Shown here: one piece after another, positions 13,751-32,172 of the stretch
Layout of the letters: each line of letters opens with the position of its first letter
How positions within the stretch are numbered: position 1 is the first letter of the stretch
Assembly: GCA_003644445.1 (NCBI GenBank)
Contig: QNCG01000003.1
Coordinates: 1-38,744, forward strand
DNA length: 38,744 nt
Reading direction: 5' to 3'
Origin: Candidatus Omnitrophota bacterium
GTDB lineage: Bacteria; Omnitrophota; Gorgyraeia; Duberdicusellales; Duberdicusellaceae
The notes under the pieces: generated by a model
Seen by the model: only the letters and a program-made list of their open reading frames with translations
What the model was told of the DNA's origin: nothing
Database searches by the model: none
Position numbers and translations under genes: made by a program

Positions 13751-15664
13751 TTAAATTTGAATCTTGCGGGTTTTAGTTTCTTCAGTGAAAACTTCAATCA
13801 CATCTTCTTCTTTAATATCATTAAAACCTACTCCTATCCCACACTCAAAACCTTCTAAAACCTCTCGGACATCATCTTTAAATCTCTTAAGAGAAGAAAC
13901 TCTTCCTTCAAAAACTACCTCTCCTGTTCTTAAAACTCTGCAAAAAGCATTCCTCAATATCCTGCCTTTCTCCACTATACAGCCAGCAATCACGCCGGCT
14001 TTAGAAAGCTTAAATACCTTCTTCACTTTAGCTCTTCCTAAGAAGACTCGCTCTATCTTAGGCTCAAGCAACCCTTCTAAGGCTGATTTTACTTCCGATA
14101 TTAATTCGTAGATAATCTGATAAGTCTTAATCTGAATATTTTTTTCCTGAGCCTTTTTAGAGGCTTGAGGTTCTACATTTACTTTAAACCCTAATATTAA
14201 AGCATCAGAAGCATCAGCTAATATTACATCAGAAAGATTAACCACCCCGACCCCCTTATGAAGAATCTTAATCTCTATAGAGGGAACTTCTATCTTTTTT
14301 AAGATATCTTCAATTGCCTCTAAAGTTCCATAAGTATCAGCCTTTATAATTACTCTGAATTCTTTAAGTTCTTGTTTTTTAATCTTCTCATAGATATTCT
14401 CTAATCTTACATGTTCAGGAATTACTTTTTTCTCTTTCTTCCCTCTTCTCTTCTCCACAATCCTAATTGCCTCTTTCTCCTCAGGAACAACTATAAACCT
14501 TTCTCCAGCAGAAACTAATCCTCCCAAACCCACTAATTCCACCGGCATAGAAGGATAGGCTTCTTTTAAAGAATTACCTCGGTCATCTCTCAGCAACCTC
14601 ACTCTACCCCATTGATCAGCACAAACTACAACATCTCCTACCCTGAAAGTACCCTGTTGAACTATTACTGTTGCTATTGGACCCAACCCTTTAGAAAGTT
14701 TTGCCTCTAATACTACTCCTAAGGCCGGACGCTGATAATCTGCCTTTAACTCCAGCAATTCTGCCTCTAAAAGGAGCATTTCTAAAAGTTCATCTATTCC
14801 CTCCCCTGTCTTGGCTGAAACTAAAACTGTGGTAGTTTGACCCCCCCAGTCTTCAGGGCTAAGTCCTAATTTAGAAAGTTGCTGTTTTACCATATCGGGT
14901 TGAGCCTGAGGTTTGTCTATCTTGTTTATAGCCACTACTATGGGCACACCCGCAGCTTTAGCGTGGCTTATAGCCTCTTCAGTCTGAGGTTTTACTCCTT
15001 CATCAGCAGCCACTACTAAAACTACGATATCAGTAAGATTAGCCCCTCTGGCTCGCATAGAAGTAAAAGTTTCATGACCGGGAGTATCAATAAAAGTAAT
15101 CTTACCCTTAGGAGTCTCTACCTGATAAGCTCCTATGTGCTGGGTAATTCCACCTGTCTCCTTCTCAGTAAGTCTGGACTTTCGGATAAAATCTAAAAGA
15201 GAGGTTTTGCCGTGGTCAATATGTCCCATAAGGGTGACTACCGGGGGCCGGGGTTTAGCTCTGCTTTCGTCAAGAATCTCTCTTTCAATTAGCTCTTCTT
15301 CTAAAGAAGTCTTTTCTTTAAGAGTAAATCCTAACTGGTAAGCTAAATCCTTAGCTAATTCTTGGTCTATATTCTGGTTTATATTTAAAAACTTTCCCTT
15401 CCTAAGAAGGAGTTGAACGATTTCCGAAGGCTTCTTACCCAGTTTTACTGAAAAATCCTTAACAGTAAGAGGAAATTCCACCTCCACAATATTTTTACTA
15501 ATCTCTTTCTCTTTAAGACCTTTAAATTCTTCCTTAATAATCTGGGCGGTTTCTTCATCTATAATAGAAAGGTGGCTTTTAACTGGAAAATTCATCTCTT
15601 TAAGTTTTTTAAGAAACTCTTTAGAATCTAAGCCTAATTCTTTTGCTAACTCATAAACTCTCAT
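13751..15664 (-). CDS. infB: Translation initiation factor IF-2
   Basis: RVYELAKEL, MGHIDHGKT, GGITQHIGA, DTPGH, NKID, SLKRFKDDVREV. Confidence 0.98.
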   Translation of the reverse strand: MRVYELAKELGLDSKEFLKKLKEMNFPVKSHLSIIDEETAQIIKEEFKGLKEKEISKNIVEVEFPLTVKDFSVKLGKKPSEIVQLLLRKGKFLNINQNIDQELAKDLAYQLGFTLKEKTSLEEELIEREILDESRAKPRPPVVTLMGHIDHGKTSLLDFIRKSRLTEKETGGITQHIGAYQVETPKGKITFIDTPGHETFTSMRARGANLTDIVVLVVAADEGVKPQTEEAISHAKAAGVPIVVAINKIDKPQAQPDMVKQQLSKLGLSPEDWGGQTTTVLVSAKTGEGIDELLEMLLLEAELLELKADYQRPALGVVLEAKLSKGLGPIATVIVQQGTFRVGDVVVCADQWGRVRLLRDDRGNSLKEAYPSMPVELVGLGGLVSAGERFIVVPEEKEAIRIVEKRRGKKEKKVIPEHVRLENIYEKIKKQELKEFRVIIKADTYGTLEAIEDILKKIEVPSIEIKILHKGVGVVNLSDVILADASDALILGFKVNVEPQASKKAQEKNIQIKTYQIIYELISEVKSALEGLLEPKIERVFLGRAKVKKVFKLSKAGVIAGCIVEKGRILRNAFCRVLRTGEVVFEGRVSSLKRFKDDVREVLEGFECGIGVGFNDIKEEDVIEVFTEETKTRKIQI

Positions 15665-16797
15665 CTTTCCAACATCTTTTTAGCCTGCTCAATAATCTCC
15701 TGGGCCTTTTTCTTACCTATCCCTTTTATCTGGGATAAATCCTTAATGTCAGCCCTAGCTAAGGAATCTAAACTTTGAAAACCTGCTTTTATTAAGTTCT
15801 CTACAGTGTGAGTTCCTACTCCTTTCAACTTATTGAGTTCTTCTGCTTCTTTCTTTATCTCCTCTTTAGAGCGGATATCCAATTCCCAACCAGTAAGTCG
15901 GGAAGCCAACCTTACATTTTGACCGCCTTTACCAATGGCCAATGAAAGCTGGCTTTTATCCACTACTACTAAGGCTCTCTTCTCTCTTTTATTTAGAACT
16001 ATCTTACTCACTTCAGCAGGAGAGAGGCTTTCTCTTATAAACTTCTGAGGGTCTTCTGAATATCTAACTATATCTATTTTTTCTCCTTTTAACTCTTGAA
16101 CGATATTCTTTACCCGCGAGCCTCTCATCCCCACACAGGCTCCTACACAATCTACCTTATCGTCTTTAGAATAAACTGCAATCTTAGTTCTATCCCCTGG
16201 GTCTCTGGCTATAGACTTTATCTCTACAATCCCTTCGTAAATTTCAGGAACCTCCAGTTCAAATAATTTTTTAACAAAATTAGCCATCCTTCGGGAAGCT
16301 ATAACTTGGGGGGTCCTATCTTTTTTTACTTCTAAACAATAGGCTCTCACTCTTTCTCCTAATTTGAAACTATCTAAAGGAGAAAGTTCTCTCTTGGGAA
16401 TAATTGCCTCAGTCTTCCCCAAAAGGTCTAAAACAACCCCGGCTTTCTCAAACCTATAAACAGAGCCAGAAATAAGTGAACCTACTTTGTCTTTAAACTC
16501 ATTAAAAATAACCTCTTTTTCTGCTTCTCTAATTTTCTGAATTATAACCTGTTTAGCAGTCTGGGCAGCAATTCGGGCTAAACTTTCGGAAAGAATCTCT
16601 TCACCCCCCACAAAGGCCCTAATCTTTCCATTTTTAGGGTCAATCTTTACAGAAATTTCAGCCGAAGGATTGGTTATTTTAGCAATCTTCTTAGCCGCTA
16701 CAACTAAAGCTTGTTCTATAGCTTGGATAAGCTTTTCCTTCTGAATACCCTTCTCTCTTTCTATCTGTTCCAGTATTGCTAATAACTCTCCATCCAT
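15661..16797 (-). CDS. nusA: Transcription termination/antitermination factor NusA
   Basis: RIAAQTAKQVI, ARDPGDRTKIAV, GACVGMRGSR, AIGKGGQNVRLA, C-terminal HhH repeats. Confidence 0.98.
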   Translation of the reverse strand: MDGELLAILEQIEREKGIQKEKLIQAIEQALVVAAKKIAKITNPSAEISVKIDPKNGKIRAFVGGEEILSESLARIAAQTAKQVIIQKIREAEKEVIFNEFKDKVGSLISGSVYRFEKAGVVLDLLGKTEAIIPKRELSPLDSFKLGERVRAYCLEVKKDRTPQVIASRRMANFVKKLFELEVPEIYEGIVEIKSIARDPGDRTKIAVYSKDDKVDCVGACVGMRGSRVKNIVQELKGEKIDIVRYSEDPQKFIRESLSPAEVSKIVLNKREKRALVVVDKSQLSLAIGKGGQNVRLASRLTGWELDIRSKEEIKKEAEELNKLKGVGTHTVENLIKAGFQSLDSLARADIKDLSQIKGIGKKKAQEIIEQAKKMLER

Positions 16798-16799
16798 TT

Positions 16800-17291
16800 T
16801 TATTCCTCCTCAGAATTGCTCCTATAATTTACTCTCTGGGTAGCTTTTCTAATCTTAACTAAAGGAATAGGTAAATTCCCCTCCCTTGTTTCTAAGAGAA
16901 CTTCTCCTTTGAATACATCTATTCCAGAAACCTTGCCTTGAATAGGCTTTTTAAAGTCTTGGCCCTGAAACCAAACATTAATTTCTCTTCCTCTTACTCT
17001 CAAAAAATCCTTAAGAGTCTTGAGTTCCCTCTTAATTCCCGGAGAAGAAACTTCTAAAATAAAAGGACTCTCTAAAAAATCTTCCTTGTCTAAATAATCA
17101 GATAATTTTTTGTTTATATATTGGCAATCCTCTAAAGTTATACCTCCTTCTTTAAAGTCTATTAATATCCTCAAGAAAAGTCTTCCCTTATTATAGAAGA
17201 GTTTAAGTTCAAAAACTTCAAACCCTTCTTTTTCCACGAGAGGAGTAATTTTCTTCCTAAGAAAAGCCTGTTTTTCTTGTAGGGAATTCAT
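16800..17291 (-). CDS. rimP: Ribosome maturation factor RimP
   Basis: LRILID...GITLEDC, LEVSSPG; immediately upstream of nusA. Confidence 0.95.
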   Translation of the reverse strand: MNSLQEKQAFLRKKITPLVEKEGFEVFELKLFYNKGRLFLRILIDFKEGGITLEDCQYINKKLSDYLDKEDFLESPFILEVSSPGIKRELKTLKDFLRVRGREINVWFQGQDFKKPIQGKVSGIDVFKGEVLLETREGNLPIPLVKIRKATQRVNYRSNSEEE

Positions 17292-18544
17292 CCAAAAAAA
17301 TCTTTACCTGTCCTAACTTTAATCTTATTTCGGAAAGAAGGAATATATCCGGTGAATTCTCCTTTAAGAGTTTCTTTGTCCTCTTTGAACTCTGTTTTTA
17401 ATGAAAATATATCCTTAACTTTATAGTCCCCTTGTTCATAGACAACTTCGGAAATTTGAGAAATTACTCTCCTGCCTTGCAAAGTTCTTTTAAGATGAAT
17501 TACCAAGTCTACCCCCCTACTCAAGAACCTTTTTATTACCTCTGCTTGAATATTGGGTTTAGCCATTAAACCTAAAGTTTCTAACCGAATTAAAGCATCG
17601 AAAGTATCGTTGGCATGAAGTGTACACATAGAACCTTCATGCCCAGTATTTATAGCCTGTAAAAAATAGAAAACTTCCTCTCCCCTTACCTCTCCTATAA
17701 TTATTCTATCGGGCCTTAAGTGGAGAGAAAGTCTAACCAAATCGTAAAGGGTAATTTCACCCTTACCCTCTATATTAGGAGAACGGGTAAGGAGTTTTAA
17801 AAAGTGGAAGTCCTCAGAAAGAGAAAGTTCCTCGGTATCCTCAATTATTATCATCCTCTCATTATTGGGTACAAATCTTAGAAGGGTATTAAGAAGAGTA
17901 GTCTTGCCTGCTCCGGTTGAACCGGTTATTAGGATATTAAGACGGGATTTTACGCTTAATTCTAAAAAGTCTAATACTTCAGGAGTCAAGGTTCCTAAAT
18001 TTATTAGATCCTGAGGTTGAAACGCTTCTGCAGTAAACTTTCTTATACAGATAGAAGGCGAAATAGACACCGGAGGAATTACTGCTGTTACTCTTGAACC
18101 GTCATCTAGTCTAAAATCCACAAAAGGAGAAAACTGGTCTATCCTTCTAGAACTGCCAGTCAACATCCTTTCAATTATAGTTTTTATCTCCTCAGCACTC
18201 TTAAAATTTAGCTCTACTCTCTTTAATTCACCCCCTTTCTCAATAAATACCTGAAAAGGACTATTTACCAAAATATCAGTAATTAAGGGGTCTTTCATCA
18301 AATCTTCTAAACCTCCATAGCCTATAACTTCAGAGACAATCTCTAAAGAGAAGTTATCTAACTCTTGCTCTGATAGAACTAATTTAGACTTATTAACAAT
18401 CTTTCTTAGAATATTATCTGATATTTCTTTAACTGCTTTTCTTCTTAAATCCTCTTTTAAAGAAAGAATTTTTTCTTTATTATCAAATATTCTTTCTTTC
18501 AATTCTCTCTTGGCCTTCTCTTTAATTAAATTTAACTCTTCCAT
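17288..18544 (-). CDS. cpaF: TadA/CpaF family pilus assembly ATPase (paralog between proS and rimP)
   Basis: ITDILVN, RRID..SPFVD.RL.DGSRV, SICIRKF, Walker A GSTGAGKTT, IEDTEEL, LRPDRIIIGEVRG, NTGHEGSMCTLHAN. Confidence 0.92.
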   Translation of the reverse strand: MEELNLIKEKAKRELKERIFDNKEKILSLKEDLRRKAVKEISDNILRKIVNKSKLVLSEQELDNFSLEIVSEVIGYGGLEDLMKDPLITDILVNSPFQVFIEKGGELKRVELNFKSAEEIKTIIERMLTGSSRRIDQFSPFVDFRLDDGSRVTAVIPPVSISPSICIRKFTAEAFQPQDLINLGTLTPEVLDFLELSVKSRLNILITGSTGAGKTTLLNTLLRFVPNNERMIIIEDTEELSLSEDFHFLKLLTRSPNIEGKGEITLYDLVRLSLHLRPDRIIIGEVRGEEVFYFLQAINTGHEGSMCTLHANDTFDALIRLETLGLMAKPNIQAEVIKRFLSRGVDLVIHLKRTLQGRRVISQISEVVYEQGDYKVKDIFSLKTEFKEDKETLKGEFTGYIPSFRNKIKVRTGKDFFG

Positions 18545-19781
18545 TTTTTTCCCTTATAGAATTTACTAAAGGTTCTAAATAATTCTTTTTATCTATAAAA
18601 AGCTTCTTTTTATCTCTTCTCCAGATAAATTCTAATTTATCTTCAGAGAAATTCTTTTTTCCCACTACTATTAAATAAGGTATACCTATTAAGTAGGCGT
18701 CCTTAAACTTTACTCCCGAATATTCAGCTCGCTCATCTAATAATACCTGAAAACCTCGCTGAGTAAGGGTATTATAAACCTGAAAACAAAAAGAGAGGAT
18801 TTCTTCTTCTTCAGGATTAAGACAGACTATCTCTATATCAAAAGGAGCTATACTTTCTGGCCAAATTATCCCCTCAGAATCATAGTTTTGCTCTATTACT
18901 CCCGAAAGAAGTCTGCTCACTCCTATTCCGTAACAGCCCATAACAATAGCCAATCTTTTACCTTTCTCATCTAAAAAATAAGCTCCTAACTTTTCTGAAT
19001 AAATAGTCCCAAGTTTAAAAATATGACCTAACTCTAACCCTTTCTTTTCTGAGTAATCTCTGCTCTTACATTTAGGACAGCAGTCTTTATCTCTAAAATA
19101 AAAACCACAATTTTTACATTGAAAAAAATTATCTTCTCCCGAAGAACTCTCTATTAAGAACTCACAAGAAGCACTCCCTCCAATAAAACCCACATCAGCT
19201 GAAAAAACTAAAGGTTCAAGGCCACACTCTTTAAATATCTTCTCATAAGCTGAGTACATACCTTGATAACTTTTTTCTAAACCCTCCTCATTCCTATCAA
19301 AACTGTAAGCATCCTTCATTATAAACTCACAACTTCTAACCAGCCCTCCTTTAGGCCTTAACTCGTCTCTAAACTTAGTCTGAATCTGATAAAGAATTAA
19401 AGGAAGCTCACGGTAAGAAGAAATATACTTACTTACTAAATCGGTAATCACCTCTTCATGGGTAGGTCCCAGACAGAGAGCCCTTCCTCTTCTGTCTTTA
19501 AACTTAATCATGACTTCACCTAAAAGGTCGCACCTTTCAGTCTTCTGCCATAAATCTAAAGGCTGGAGAGCAGGAAGTAAAACTTCACAAGCCTCTAAAC
19601 TATTCATATTCTTTCTTACTATAGCTTCTATTCTCCTTAAAACCCTCAAACCTAAGGGAAGATAGGAATATATCCCTGAAGCTAAAGGAGAAATAAGGCC
19701 TGCTTTTAAAGAGAGCTTAAAAGAAATAGATTCTTCTTTTACTTCTCTTAAAGTAGGAATAAAATATTTAGAAAAAAGCAT
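18522..19781 (-). CDS. proS: Proline--tRNA ligase (bacterial type, short form without INS editing domain)
   Basis: GIYSYLPLG, LGPTHEEVIT, YQIQTKFRDE.RP..GL.R..EF.MKDAYSF, ELGHIFKLG, MGCYGIGVSR, GIIWP. Confidence 0.97.
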   Translation of the reverse strand: MLFSKYFIPTLREVKEESISFKLSLKAGLISPLASGIYSYLPLGLRVLRRIEAIVRKNMNSLEACEVLLPALQPLDLWQKTERCDLLGEVMIKFKDRRGRALCLGPTHEEVITDLVSKYISSYRELPLILYQIQTKFRDELRPKGGLVRSCEFIMKDAYSFDRNEEGLEKSYQGMYSAYEKIFKECGLEPLVFSADVGFIGGSASCEFLIESSSGEDNFFQCKNCGFYFRDKDCCPKCKSRDYSEKKGLELGHIFKLGTIYSEKLGAYFLDEKGKRLAIVMGCYGIGVSRLLSGVIEQNYDSEGIIWPESIAPFDIEIVCLNPEEEEILSFCFQVYNTLTQRGFQVLLDERAEYSGVKFKDAYLIGIPYLIVVGKKNFSEDKLEFIWRRDKKKLFIDKKNYLEPLVNSIREKNGRVKFN

Positions 19782-19789
19782 TTTTTATT

Positions 19790-21058
19790 CTAGCTTTTTT
19801 TATTCGGCTCAAATAATTCTTTAGGTACTTTAACTCCCATCTTATCAAATTTAGATAAAAAAGTAGGCAAAACACCCGTAGGAGAAAAAAAACCTCTTAC
19901 TTCTCCCTGAGGAGTTATTTCTTCTTGAGCAAAAGAGAATAAATCTTTGATAATTATATTATCTTCGGAATCTAAATCAACAATCTCACTTATCCGGGTA
20001 ACCTTTCTAGAACCATCTACTAATTGCTCCTGCTGAACCACTACTTCTAAACCCTGAGTAATCTGCCTTCTTATTGCCCAAATAGGCAGATTTACTCCTG
20101 AATAAAAAACCATTGTCTCTAACCTGCTAACTACATCTTCAGGTGAAGAAGCATGGATTACCGCTAAAATACCCCTATGCCCACTATTCAAAGCCTGAAG
20201 GAAATCTAAGGCTTCCTGGCCTCTTATTTCCCCTAAGATAATCCGGGAAGGCCTCATCCTTAAAGTATTTATAAATAAATCTCTTATAGCAACTTCTCCT
20301 TTGCCCTCTACATTAGGAGCCCGGGTTAAAAGTCTCACCACATGTTTCTGCCTAAGGTGTAATTCTAAAGCATCCTCAATAGTTATAATTCTTTCTGAAG
20401 GCTCAATATAAGAAGATAAAACTTCTAAAGTAGTGGTCTTTCCTACGCCAGTGGCTCCCGAAAAAATCATATTGATTTTAGCTTTTATACAAGCTTTAAG
20501 AAAATGAGCCATTTTTTCATCTAATGTCCCTAAGTTTATTAAGTCTTCCAAAGATTCTATTCGTTTCAAAAATTTTCTTATAGTTAATGTAGGCCCTTCC
20601 ACAGATAAGGGAGGCAATATCACATTAACTCTTGAGCCATCCTCCAAAGAAAAATCTACATAAGGAAAAGACTCATCCACTCTTCTCCCAGTAGGCCTTA
20701 TCATCTTCTCAATAATATAGCGAAGATGCTGCTCATTATCAAACTTAACTTCAGTTAAAAACTTTTTACCTTTTCTCTCTGCATAGACCTGGTAAGGACC
20801 ATTAACCATAATCTCAGTAACTTCCTCATCCTCTATAAGCTTTTGAAGAGGGCCCCATCCTAACAAGTCATTAATTATCTCTGAGGTAAGAATCTCCCTA
20901 TCTTTATCAGAGATAATTATTTGCCTTTCCTTCTCTAAACTTTCAAAAATGTCCTCTATTTTAGAGGTTATCTCTTCCTTACTAAAAGAACTTTTATCTC
21001 TTCCCAAACTTAAAAATAAGCTTTCTCTAAGAATCTTTTTAAGTCCAAGCTTATCCAT
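19790..21058 (-). CDS. cpaF: TadA/CpaF family pilus assembly ATPase (paralog between ispG and proS)
   Basis: VTEIMVNGP, RRVDES.PYVD, DGSRVN, TLTIRKF, Walker A GATGVGKTT, IEDALEL, LRMRPSRIILGEIRG, DGSRKV. Confidence 0.92.
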   Translation of the reverse strand: MDKLGLKKILRESLFLSLGRDKSSFSKEEITSKIEDIFESLEKERQIIISDKDREILTSEIINDLLGWGPLQKLIEDEEVTEIMVNGPYQVYAERKGKKFLTEVKFDNEQHLRYIIEKMIRPTGRRVDESFPYVDFSLEDGSRVNVILPPLSVEGPTLTIRKFLKRIESLEDLINLGTLDEKMAHFLKACIKAKINMIFSGATGVGKTTTLEVLSSYIEPSERIITIEDALELHLRQKHVVRLLTRAPNVEGKGEVAIRDLFINTLRMRPSRIILGEIRGQEALDFLQALNSGHRGILAVIHASSPEDVVSRLETMVFYSGVNLPIWAIRRQITQGLEVVVQQEQLVDGSRKVTRISEIVDLDSEDNIIIKDLFSFAQEEITPQGEVRGFFSPTGVLPTFLSKFDKMGVKVPKELFEPNKKS

Positions 21059-21059
21059 C

Positions 21060-22106
21060 CTAACTCCTTTTTAAAAAATACAGAAGAGTATCTAAGGAAC
21101 CCCTCTCCTCGATAGCTTTAATTATTTTACCTCTCTTAAAAAGAAGGGCTCTCCTTCCGGCAAAAGCTAAGCCTAAGTCTGAGGTGCTTGCTTCTCCCGG
21201 TCCGTTTACTACACAACCCATAAGAGCAACTTTCATATTTTTATTATACAGGCTATCTTTGTTCTTATAAACCATTTCTTTAAATTTCTCTACTTTTTTC
21301 TTTAAATCTACCTTACACCGCGAACAGGTAGGGCAAGATATTATCTCAGGATAAAAATACCCCTTCCCTAAAGATTGGAGTATCCAGCCTGCGGTTCTTA
21401 CTTCCTCCCAAGAAGAAGAGTTCAAAGAGACTCTTATAGCTGAACCTATACCTTGATATATAAGAATCCCCAGAGTAAGGCAACTTTTTATCAAACCCTC
21501 ATAAAGAGGGCCGGTGGCAGTTAAACCGAGATGAATGGGGTAAGGCAACTTCTTATAAAGAATCTGATTAGCTAAAATTGTAGCTAAACAAGACTCAGCC
21601 TTAGCTGAAACCATTATTCTCTTAAAGTTTAAACTCTCCAAAAATTCTACATAAGAAAAGACCTTCTTAACCATAGCCTGGGCTAATTCTCTACTATCCA
21701 TCCTTTTTTTAAATCCTCCGGAGTTAACACCTACTCTTATGGGCGTGGATTTTTCTTTAGCCAGTTTTGCAATCTTTGTTAGATGAGATTTTTTGTAGAT
21801 ATTTAAAGGATTCAACCTTAAACAGTCTACCCCTTTCTCTAATGCTGAGAGAGCTAACCTATAGTTAAAGTGGATATCTGCCTCTAAAGGAATGTCTATT
21901 AATTTTCTTAATCGATCTATTACCTTTAAATCTCCCTCCTTCTCTATAGCTACTCTTAAGATTTGGCAACCTTCTTGTTTAAGAAGTTTAACCTCTTTTA
22001 AAAAGTTCTTGTTATCTTCTAAGGAAGTTTTAATCATTCCTTTTATAACTATAGAGTTTTTACCTCCTAATTTTAAATTACTTACTTTTATAACTTTTTT
22101 CCTCAT
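21060..22106 (-). CDS. ispG: (E)-4-hydroxy-3-methylbut-2-enyl-diphosphate synthase (divergent)
   Basis: ADIHF, IRVGVN, IRVSL, [4Fe-4S] motifs SCPTCSR and MGCVVNGPGEA; position after rseP. Confidence 0.94.
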   Translation of the reverse strand: MRKKVIKVSNLKLGGKNSIVIKGMIKTSLEDNKNFLKEVKLLKQEGCQILRVAIEKEGDLKVIDRLRKLIDIPLEADIHFNYRLALSALEKGVDCLRLNPLNIYKKSHLTKIAKLAKEKSTPIRVGVNSGGFKKRMDSRELAQAMVKKVFSYVEFLESLNFKRIMVSAKAESCLATILANQILYKKLPYPIHLGLTATGPLYEGLIKSCLTLGILIYQGIGSAIRVSLNSSSWEEVRTAGWILQSLGKGYFYPEIISCPTCSRCKVDLKKKVEKFKEMVYKNKDSLYNKNMKVALMGCVVNGPGEASTSDLGLAFAGRRALLFKRGKIIKAIEERGSLDTLLYFLKRS

Positions 22107-23170
22107 TATTTACTAAATATTTTAGAACCAAACCTGATAATATCATTATAGAGAACAAAGAATATTAAAAGAAAAATAAAGGATATTCCTATCTTAGTAA
22201 TTATCTCCTCTGTCTTTAATGAAAGAGGTTTTCTCCTTATCTTCTCTAAGCCTAAAAGAAAAATGTGTCCTCCATCTAAAACTGGCAAGGGTAAAATATT
22301 AAAAATTGCTAAACTCATACTTAAGACTGCCATAAGGTGGAGTACAGAAGAAAGCCCCCAGCTTACAGCTTGTTTAGTAATATAATATATACCTAAAGGA
22401 CCAGTAAGAGTCTCTCTAAAGGGAAGGGCTCCTATTACTATATAAAATAAAGCCTTAAAAGTAAGAAAAGTAAACCTCAGTAAACTCAAACTTCCCTCTA
22501 TAATCGCTCTTAAAGGGGTGTATCTTAATTTAACCACCTCTTGAGAAGGATAAATCCCGATAAAAGAAAAGACTCTCTTTCTTCCCAAGAGATCTTTTAC
22601 TTCTTCTCTCTTAGGAGTAATAGTAAATCTCACTTTTTCCCCATTTCTTAAAACTACTACCTCTATTTGTTTGAGGTTAGTATTATGGATTACTTCAGTT
22701 ATATCCTGCCAGGTCTTTGTAGGTTTGCCTTCTACTTCTAAGATTATATCTTGCTCTTTAATTCCGGCTTTTTCTGCTGGCCAGCCCGGTTTGAGTTTTC
22801 CCACCCGGTTAGAAGGAAGTTCTACTCCGGCCAGGAAAACAAGACAGAATAAAATCCAACTAAATAAATAATTAAACAAAGGACCAGCTAATATTATTTT
22901 AGCTCTCCTCCCCAAAGGTTTAGACAAAAACTCCCAAGGTTTTCTTTGATACTCCTGGCGTTCAAAACCAGCCAATTTAACATAACCTCCCCACAAGATA
23001 AGAGATATATAAAGGTCAAATGTCCTGAACTTAAATTTAGCCAAGGGAGGCCCAAACCCTATGGAGAAGACCTCCACTTTTACCCCTGAAGCCTTAGCTA
23101 AAAGAAAATGGCCCAGTTCGTGAACCACTACTAAAATTCCTAAAATGAGAATAAATACCAGCACACTCAT
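22106..23170 (-). CDS. rseP: RIP metalloprotease RseP (M50) with PDZ domain
   Basis: HELGH, FSIGFGP, GGYVKL, AGPLFN, NILPLPVLDGGH. Confidence 0.97.
   Translation of the reverse strand: MSVLVFILILGILVVVHELGHFLLAKASGVKVEVFSIGFGPPLAKFKFRTFDLYISLILWGGYVKLAGFERQEYQRKPWEFLSKPLGRRAKIILAGPLFNYLFSWILFCLVFLAGVELPSNRVGKLKPGWPAEKAGIKEQDIILEVEGKPTKTWQDITEVIHNTNLKQIEVVVLRNGEKVRFTITPKREEVKDLLGRKRVFSFIGIYPSQEVVKLRYTPLRAIIEGSLSLLRFTFLTFKALFYIVIGALPFRETLTGPLGIYYITKQAVSWGLSSVLHLMAVLSMSLAIFNILPLPVLDGGHIFLLGLEKIRRKPLSLKTEEIITKIGISFIFLLIFFVLYNDIIRFGSKIFSK

Positions 23171-29189: not shown

Positions 29190-32172
<2,983 letters not shown>

Follow-up and report, generated by a model that had tools for sequence, protein, structure and literature searches.

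What are two genes for ATPases of the CpaF/TadA family, the motors of Tad pili, doing on either side of a prolyl-tRNA synthetase gene in a bacterial housekeeping array? The question is raised by a 38,744-nt stretch of DNA (hereafter the window; GenBank contig QNCG01000003.1, assembly GCA_003644445.1), which is an entire contig of a 1.20 Mb, 92% complete Candidatus Omnitrophota genome. On its minus strand, CpaF-A (422 aa; positions 19790–21058; PF00437, 183 bits) lies between ispG and proS, and CpaF-B (418 aa; 17288–18544; PF00437, 172.7 bits), a diverged member of the same family, lies between proS and rimP. A first-pass annotation of the sequence had presented the pair as a candidate for an undescribed system, consisting either of alternative or heteromeric motors for a Tad machine encoded elsewhere or of ATPases repurposed for another role. 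From their phylogeny and co-distribution, we infer that CpaF-A and CpaF-B are probably trans-encoded accessory motors of a single Tad machine, placed in housekeeping gene arrays. The label of an undescribed system therefore overstates the case, and the set is better classed as a variant of the Tad system, one whose motors comprise several paralogs and are encoded partly in trans, than as a new system.

Four CpaF-type motors and one Tad platform

The genome carries four CpaF-type genes, namely CpaF-A and CpaF-B of the window (A and B below) and two on other contigs, which we designate S and Z. They account for four of its 14 T2SSE matches, the others being seven of PilB/GspE type (at least 364 bits), a partial match at the end of contig C92 and two of PilT size; T2SSF domain matches also number 14. 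Six genes encode two-domain PilC proteins, five of them no more than a few hundred bases away from a PilB-type ATPase gene and the sixth (on C18) ∼2 kb from one, so no platform is left there without a motor. The sole TadB/TadC pair is encoded by single-domain genes (C12:3410–5115) in the only tad locus of the genome, which comprises Z, a secretin, a TadG-like gene, a weak Flp-like open reading frame (ORF), TadB and TadC. That four CpaF-type motors are present for one TadB/TadC platform supports the reading of A and B as Tad motors.

In the whole-genome profile search, T2SSF matches (tadB/C, pilC) were absent from the window's contig (C3) and found on other contigs only, as were the single prepilin peptidase (C6) and the single, weak Flp-like match (C12). 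The first-pass annotation had thus rightly seen no pilus genes nearby and rightly supposed that a Tad machine is encoded elsewhere, on C12; the genome-wide count that it proposed comes to four CpaF-type genes, one TadB/TadC pair and one weak Flp-like match. Type IV filament machinery as a whole takes up a very large share of the coding capacity of this 1.2 Mb genome.

Both window genes had been called full-length CpaF-type ATPases, which agrees with our comparisons. They exceed the Pfam cut-off for PF00437 (T2SSE; 24.9 bits), and their closest solved structures are those of Caulobacter crescentus CpaF, matched by A at E = 4e-99 (8rkd/9e24; A residues 30–403 to CpaF residues 110–483) and by B at E = 7e-78 (8rkd; CpaF residues 106–459). 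The C. crescentus structures (PDB 8rjf, 8rkd, 9e24–9e29) represent the same family and domain order as A and B, and the alignments take in nearly all of the ordered part of CpaF. The two window proteins are 36% identical over 417 residues, which bears out the description of B as a clearly diverged paralog. In an alignment, residues 1–75 of A and B match the N-terminal parts of Z and the outgroup CpaFs, and both proteins probably carry the N-terminal three-helix bundle (3HB) of the class I architecture. As far as the accessible part of the source sets out, class I (3HB-NTD-CAD) is the minimum CpaF architecture, one of three listed, and the ∼420 aa of A and B correspond to its size (Yen 2025, PMC12019362).

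None of the curated NCBIfam equivalog cut-offs is reached by A or B. For TIGR03819 (TadA family conjugal transfer-associated ATPase), scores of 294.5 (A), 310.2 (B), 283.8 (S) and 347.3 bits (Z) all fall below 373.15. An identity as VirB11/TrbB ATPases of type IV secretion systems was rejected with two models (TIGR02788, cut-off 249.95: A 202 and B 214.5 bits; TIGR02782, cut-off 304.55: A 166.9 and B 193 bits). PilT/PilU was rejected likewise (TIGR01420, cut-off 319.1: A 53.4, B 55.1 and S 77.4 bits), and A, B and S are thus duplicates within the CpaF lineage, not relatives of PilT.

The third accessory paralog, S (354 aa in an open frame of 357 aa; C1:32881–33945, minus strand; locus L026:8882–9946), begins where the N-terminal three-helix bundle of the other paralogs ends, which leaves it below the minimum architecture in the accessible part of Yen 2025. 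On one side of S is a tRNA-Cys/Leu/Val cluster and on the other thrS-infC-rplT, with an 8-nt overlap between S and thrS. Because S is placed beside thrS, three orphan CpaF genes, not two, stand in translation-gene arrays; the first-pass annotation was correct that A and B are orphans in cis but missed this third one.

Z (724 aa; C12:12188–14362) is a TadZ-CpaF fusion, in which an N-terminal ParA/MinD/TadZ-like domain of ∼250–300 residues is joined to CpaF. Such a fusion is not among the three architectures listed in the same portion of Yen 2025. Class-wide, the fusion occupies open frames of 713–754 aa, most of them 720–750 aa, and open frames in another class have a similar length (∼694–707 aa), a likeness of length alone. 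The adjacent Tad secretin (C12:14372–15940) ends in a TonB_C domain (PF03544, 58 bits), which follows its Secretin domain.

The accessory paralogs form one clade inherited across the class

A CpaF tree of 52 rows was built with IQ-TREE under LG+C20+F+G4, with support given as ultrafast bootstrap/SH-aLRT. A, S and B fall into a single clade (100/99), within which A (97/92), S (100/99), A+S (100/98) and a B-group (100/99) are recovered; the B-group unites B of the window with relocated copies and with the second CpaF that other families have at proS|rimP. A and S also have in common the derived signatures SGATG..KTTT.E and GHRG..LAVIH. Z (100/99) does not belong to the A+S+B clade and is placed with canonical CpaFs from other phyla, and A and B lie outside the canonical CpaF clade. 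Larger quick trees of 96 and 84 rows agree with this topology; one quick tree omitted a truncated duplicate (G022, L162:165–1451) and another included only one in two of the A, Z and S-in-tad rows.

Because the A+S+B clade is separate from Z, A and B did not arise by recent duplication of the tad-locus gene, an origin that the first-pass annotation had named as fatal to its proposal; they form instead the distinct, vertically inherited clades that it had envisaged. The A subtree follows genome families, and the groupings of the tree date the order ispG-A-proS-B-rimP to the common ancestor of several families. On this phylogenetic evidence, the arrangement is vertically inherited across the class.

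Among 40 genomes of the same order (the relatives), 26 have orthologs of A (53–92% identity), all 26 with proS directly downstream; ispG lies upstream in 25, the remaining locus being cut off by the edge of its contig. A phylum sample of 201 genomes contained 96 members of the class to which the window belongs and 105 genomes of other classes. CpaF was found directly upstream of proS in 28 of the 96 class members, and all 28 cases lie in the class; among the other-class genomes, which mostly have a single CpaF, 29 had a CpaF match, 13 of these with a listed proS on another contig and 16 with the place of proS not among the matches listed or proS not found (G105). Ten genomes of the phylum sample, from families f1, f15 and f22, have CpaF on both sides of proS, and five such two-flank loci show the full order rseP-ispG-A-proS-CpaF-rimP-nusA, as does contig L058 of a metagenome-assembled genome (MAG). 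The arrangement is therefore class-wide and not unique to this assembly. Departures occur in family f14, where the order is ispG-A-rimP with proS elsewhere, and in G192 and L057, where an A-type gene is not followed by proS. The two f14 loci (L183 and L184) differ in what was matched, with rseP-ispG-A-rimP in G083 and only A-rimP in G170.

B is more variable. Its orthologs occupy proS|rimP in G001 (71% identity) and G004 (61%), and among the f1 genomes B is at this place in three of nine; those of G015, G037 and G021 are relocated to unrelated housekeeping contexts. Neighbours of relocated copies are radical SAM and Memo genes, ligA and a response regulator, aroB and a FliR-like gene, or recJ and an AddA-like helicase gene. 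G002, a member of the window's genus, is without B, and there the aligned segments of proS and of rimP, the next gene, are 107 nt apart. Conservation of the order ispG-cpaF-proS-cpaF-rimP, which the first-pass annotation had proposed to examine, thus holds for A in 26 of the 40 relatives, whereas B is dispensable within a genus. Two genes downstream of the relocated B-group copy of G170 is a FliR/Bac_export_1 gene (L181:3304–4071, 192 bits), a possible sign of flagellar or type III export machinery in that genome.

S lies directly upstream of thrS in nine genomes of families f1, f2 and f15 and immediately adjoins Z in the tad locus of 14 genomes of family f3. Since the f3 copies form a single clade (100/100) nested within a thrS-linked grade, S must have moved into the tad operon.

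Co-distribution with the Tad machine

No CpaF of any kind was found in eight of the 40 relatives (G003, G014, G018, G020, G024, G026, G032 and G035), and TadB is present in none of these eight: seven gave no match, and the sole match of the TadB search, in G024, is a 405-aa open frame (E = 1e-9) read as PilC-like. All eight have a clean rseP-ispG-proS-rimP-nusA array, a state that takes at least four changes on a ProS+IspG tree (built without G013, G023, G033 and G036). Because every CpaF-less relative is also TadB-less, a role as Tad motors is favoured over repurposed ATPases, the other option of the first-pass annotation. In the phylum sample, the Z fusion occurs in 27 of the 28 genomes with CpaF directly upstream of proS.

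The proposed mechanism is as follows. A and B, which we take to be working ATPases, belong with the bundle-less S to a group of accessory paralogs that originated by duplication in one Omnitrophota class. The canonical motor, Z, carries a TadZ/ParA-like fusion, and its gene shares the only tad locus with those for the secretin, TadB and TadC. Most likely the accessory paralogs work for this machine in trans, as extra hexameric motors that would dock on the TadB/TadC platform, with labour divided among the motors by extension, retraction, force or timing. A prediction of a 1:1:1 TadB+TadC+CpaF-A complex scored 0.00 against a mark of 0.32, at a stoichiometry unlike that of a hexamer on a trimer of heterodimers, and speaks neither for nor against docking. 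A and B would descend from an old insertion into the rseP-ispG-proS-rimP-nusA-infB array, inherited vertically, and are probably co-transcribed with the genes of the array; this placement probably gives them steady co-expression. The tight spacing and co-orientation led the first-pass annotation to propose growth-linked expression, which we keep as a hypothesis. Co-orientation is not specific to A and B, since 37.6 kb of the window are co-directional.

Several observations weigh against reading A and B as accessory Tad motors. Of the 26 A-bearing relatives, three that are 91–93% complete (G001, G011 and G028) yielded no Z and no TadB, and one of them, G001 of the window's genus, keeps A, B and S; if these three genomes are truly Tad-less, the accessory ATPases work without Tad. 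In the phylum sample, G164 has A and a second copy and no Z. An independent-pairs test of A against Tad had too few pairs and was not significant (median sign-test p 0.25): among the 6–7 pairs that differ in Tad, A differed the same way in 3–4, the opposite way in 0–1 and not at all in 2–3. Mismatches of the converse kind are G010 and G022, which have a tad locus yet a direct ispG-proS junction, G013, G033 and G036, which have Z and S and gave no A-type match, and G002 with its missing B.

The platform-facing residues add to these points. According to the accessible portion of a preprint (10.64898/2026.02.24.707734), retraction is tied to the C-terminal face (P386/R387) and to N1-domain clashes. 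Where C. crescentus has P386/R387, canonical outgroup CpaFs have PR as their consensus, whereas Z has TH, A has PE, B has TF and S has P followed by a variable residue; because no paralog keeps the canonical R387, a split into extension and retraction motors is unreadable from this motif. Conservation by region is suggestive at most, with values of 0.70 (S), 0.52 (A) and 0.70 (Z) for the C-terminal motif, 0.37 (A) and 0.60 (Z) for N1, and 0.55 for the N-terminal domain of S, which is thus less conserved than the C-terminal motif of S.

A more ambitious version, in which one class reinvented the multi-motor pilus with four CpaF-lineage Tad motors and coupled pilus dynamics to expression of the translation apparatus, strikes us as improbable when all its parts are taken together. 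Z would then perform TadZ-tethered assembly and S PilT-like retraction, with A and B specialised; the accessory genes would ancestrally lie beside class II aminoacyl-tRNA synthetase (aaRS) genes, two at proS and one at thrS; and pilus dynamics would serve host or prey contact. Class II synthetase genes do recur strikingly as neighbours, proS twice and thrS once. The pattern is weakened because proS left the array in f14, the contexts of relocated copies are unrelated, and no CpaF–aaRS fusions occur among the 120 longer homologs listed.

Alternative explanations

One alternative, which we regard as unlikely, is that A, B, S and Z co-assemble as hetero-hexamers and are specialised subunits of one motor. 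It agrees with the retention of ATPase motifs by all four paralogs of the genome: A has SGATGVGKTT, ERIITIED, RIILGEIRG and SGHRG..IHAS, and B has GSTGAGKTT, ERMIIIED, RIIIGEVRG and TGHEG..LHAN, which we take to be the Walker A motif, the Asp box, the Walker B motif with its catalytic Glu and the His box, and all four motifs are intact in S and Z as well. Walker A and the Walker B Glu are kept in 16/16 B-group members, and the first His of the His box is replaced in some of them (by N in G004, by R in the f22 genomes and L058, and by Q in G022), a change that could be tolerated in a mixed ring. Rings of non-identical modules are also made plausible by the tandem multi-CpaF proteins described at the end of this section. 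However, the paralogs are lost singly (B in G002, A in G010 and G022, with S not found in G006), and exchangeable motors therefore fit better than obligate subunits. Moreover, the extra 300-aa TadZ domain of Z and the missing three-helix bundle of S would make a symmetric mixed ring uneven.

Slightly less probable again is a pilus-independent role, in which A, B and S power something else or act together with proS, thrS or rimP. By parsimony, the ancestral spots of all three accessory paralogs adjoin translation genes, their clade stands apart from canonical CpaF, the P386/R387 platform-face residues are not kept, and A persists in the three relatives where Z and TadB were not found. Against such a role, all eight Tad-less relatives are without A, B and S, which amounts to at least four independent co-losses, and S has relocated beside Z in the tad locus of family f3. 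A stayed in the array when proS left it in f14, relocated copies occupy unrelated contexts, and completeness of 91–93% can account for three missing tad loci among 26 genomes. A search for CpaF–aaRS fusions (8000 candidates scored) found an aaRS Pfam domain in none of the 120 longer CpaF homologs listed, of 2084 matches.

Selection speaks to the last alternative. Estimated by the Nei–Gojobori method, dN/dS for A was 0.12 against G002 (dS 0.29) and 0.11 against G001, and for B it was 0.12 against G001, at a dS of 1.5 that is near saturation, a G002 row for B being a mismatch to A that was set aside; the corresponding values against G002 and G001 were 0.12–0.17 for ispG and 0.09–0.10 for proS. 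A and B are under purifying selection at levels like those of ispG and proS, and the relaxed selection that the first-pass annotation had listed as a possible refutation was not found. That A and B are decaying passengers, selfish or neutral insertions held in place by a conserved operon, is accordingly very improbable: the patchiness of B (at proS|rimP in three of nine f1 genomes and missing from G002 of the same genus) would suit such a history, but the dN/dS of both genes contradicts decay, frames are open and motifs intact class-wide, and no repeats or mobile-element genes were present among the window ORFs scanned.

The homologs listed also include public proteins in which a single chain of ∼775–2100 aa holds 2 to ∼5 tandem CpaF modules. 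They occur in Chloroflexi and other phyla, and several bear the name CpaF family protein, from Chloroflexaceae, Herpetosiphonaceae, Riflebacteria and others; our literature searches turned up no description of tandem-fused multi-CpaF proteins. Their modules are covalently fused and presumably serve one machine, in contrast to the paralogs of the window, which are separate, scattered genes.

Locus architecture and neighbouring genes

Read in the direction of the minus strand, the array comprises rseP (22106–23170; RseP family match), ispG (21060–22106; GcpE PF04551, 350 bits), CpaF-A, proS (18522–19781), CpaF-B, rimP (16800–17291; RimP_N), nusA (15661–16797; NusA family) and infB (13751–15664; IF-2 family), so that ispG is the upstream neighbour of A and rimP the downstream neighbour of B. 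Further upstream are uppS, cdsA and dxr, and further downstream are a trpS/tyrS-type gene, scpA, ruvB, tgt and trmD. Between 1157 and 38742, all ORFs of 70 aa or more lie on the minus strand, leaving aside those nested in a longer minus-strand ORF, and 37.6 kb are thus co-directional.

The junctions, read base by base, are exactly those given in the first-pass annotation. The TAG of ispG is separated by 1 nt from the ATG of A, and the TAG of A by 8 nt from the ATG of proS. B starts with an ATG at 18544, inside the end of proS (18522), which gives a 23-bp overlap, and its stop codon overlaps the start of rimP by 4 bp (ATGA).

A Pfam scan of 29 window ORFs returned housekeeping families except for A, B and one 569-aa ORF (30463–32172), which lies between purA and serA-like genes and has no Pfam family at E 1e-5. 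The same scan found no mobile-element genes or repeats among these ORFs, in agreement with the earlier remark that there is no mobile-element scar. The earlier impression that no promoter lies nearby fits the counts of promoter-like sites (27, vs 32.2 ± 6.2 in shuffles), which do not exceed chance under models that do not cover Omnitrophota promoter types; terminator-like sites (17, vs 11.9 ± 4.1 in shuffles) are not above chance either. Scanned against Rfam, the window and the thrS locus gave only three tRNAs, upstream of S, and no leader or riboswitch at proS or thrS.

An assembly artefact was rejected, as contigs from three independent studies recover the same stretch with the arrangement. 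X2 yielded a single 11,310-nt contig that spans 16800–22106 with seven differences and is possibly from the source sample; contigs of X6 cover 16800–17977, 18047–18593 and 18621–22106, and those of X7 cover 16800–18474 and 18621–21951. An RNA run (X22) gave no contig over 16800–22106 and is uninformative on expression.

The proS product is a short prolyl-tRNA synthetase (ProRS) of 419 aa with tRNA-synt_2b and HGTP_anticodon domains. It matches TIGR00409 (568 positions, cut-off 306.7) at 506.9 bits in two stretches and the short-form model NF008979 (437 positions) at 459.6 bits; from its length and the two-stretch match, it probably lacks the INS editing insertion. In the phylum sample, short ProRS (open frames of ∼410–460 aa with one colinear match) occurs in part of the class, and other Omnitrophota have a ProRS of 560–600 aa whose match is split in two. 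The short form is present wherever CpaF lies upstream of proS but is more widespread than the CpaF gene.

Relation to known systems and implications

Motor functions of type IVa pili are split among PilB, PilT and PilU, and pilus motor genes can lie apart from the pilus operon. The set A, B, S and Z would resemble that system in having several paralogous hexameric ATPases for one platform. Type IVa retraction motors are also without an N1 domain, like S, whereas A and B keep the N-terminal bundle.

Tad pili, by contrast, are described as single-motor systems in the accessible parts of three sources (Ellison 2019, bioRxiv 10.1101/616128; Yen 2025, PMC12019362; and the 2026 preprint 10.64898/2026.02.24.707734), so that the four paralogs per platform found here differ from the single bifunctional motor of the model Tad systems. 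A trans-encoded retraction ATPase was considered and rejected for Caulobacter in the accessible text of Ellison 2019, where Tad CpaF genes are recognised by being co-oriented with tadB/tadC in a tad operon, a position that neither A nor B occupies.

For Omnitrophota, the main text of a survey of the phylum reports Tad genes in 74/116 Velamenicoccia species and associates them with a predatory or parasitic way of life (Seymour 2023, PMC10066038). It concerns the same machine in the same phylum, with TadB/C, RcpA, TadZ and Flp as the components surveyed; the terms 'CpaF' and 'TadA' are absent from that main text, and paralogs at proS or thrS go unmentioned there. A 2026 Omnitrophota preprint mentions the Tad cassette once and CpaF never. 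We found no published account of CpaF paralogs at proS or thrS in a search whose scope did not extend to the supplements of Seymour 2023, Yen 2025 (292 CpaF orthologs) and preprint 10.64898/2026.02.24.707734.

The insertion into ispG-proS-rimP is a clean synteny marker for the class. Tad callers based on gene clustering will miss trans-encoded motors of this kind. The main texts of surveys of Omnitrophota, ultra-small bacteria with a presumed predatory or parasitic life, do not report such motors. Tad pili are the standard example of a pilus that both extends and retracts on one ATPase, and work from 2019 to 2026 has turned on how a single CpaF achieves this. One platform with four conserved CpaF paralogs, of which S is missing the N-terminal bundle like PilT, amounts to a natural experiment on the bidirectionality of a single CpaF, and a four-paralog lineage predicts that direction, force or timing can be divided among CpaF-type motors.

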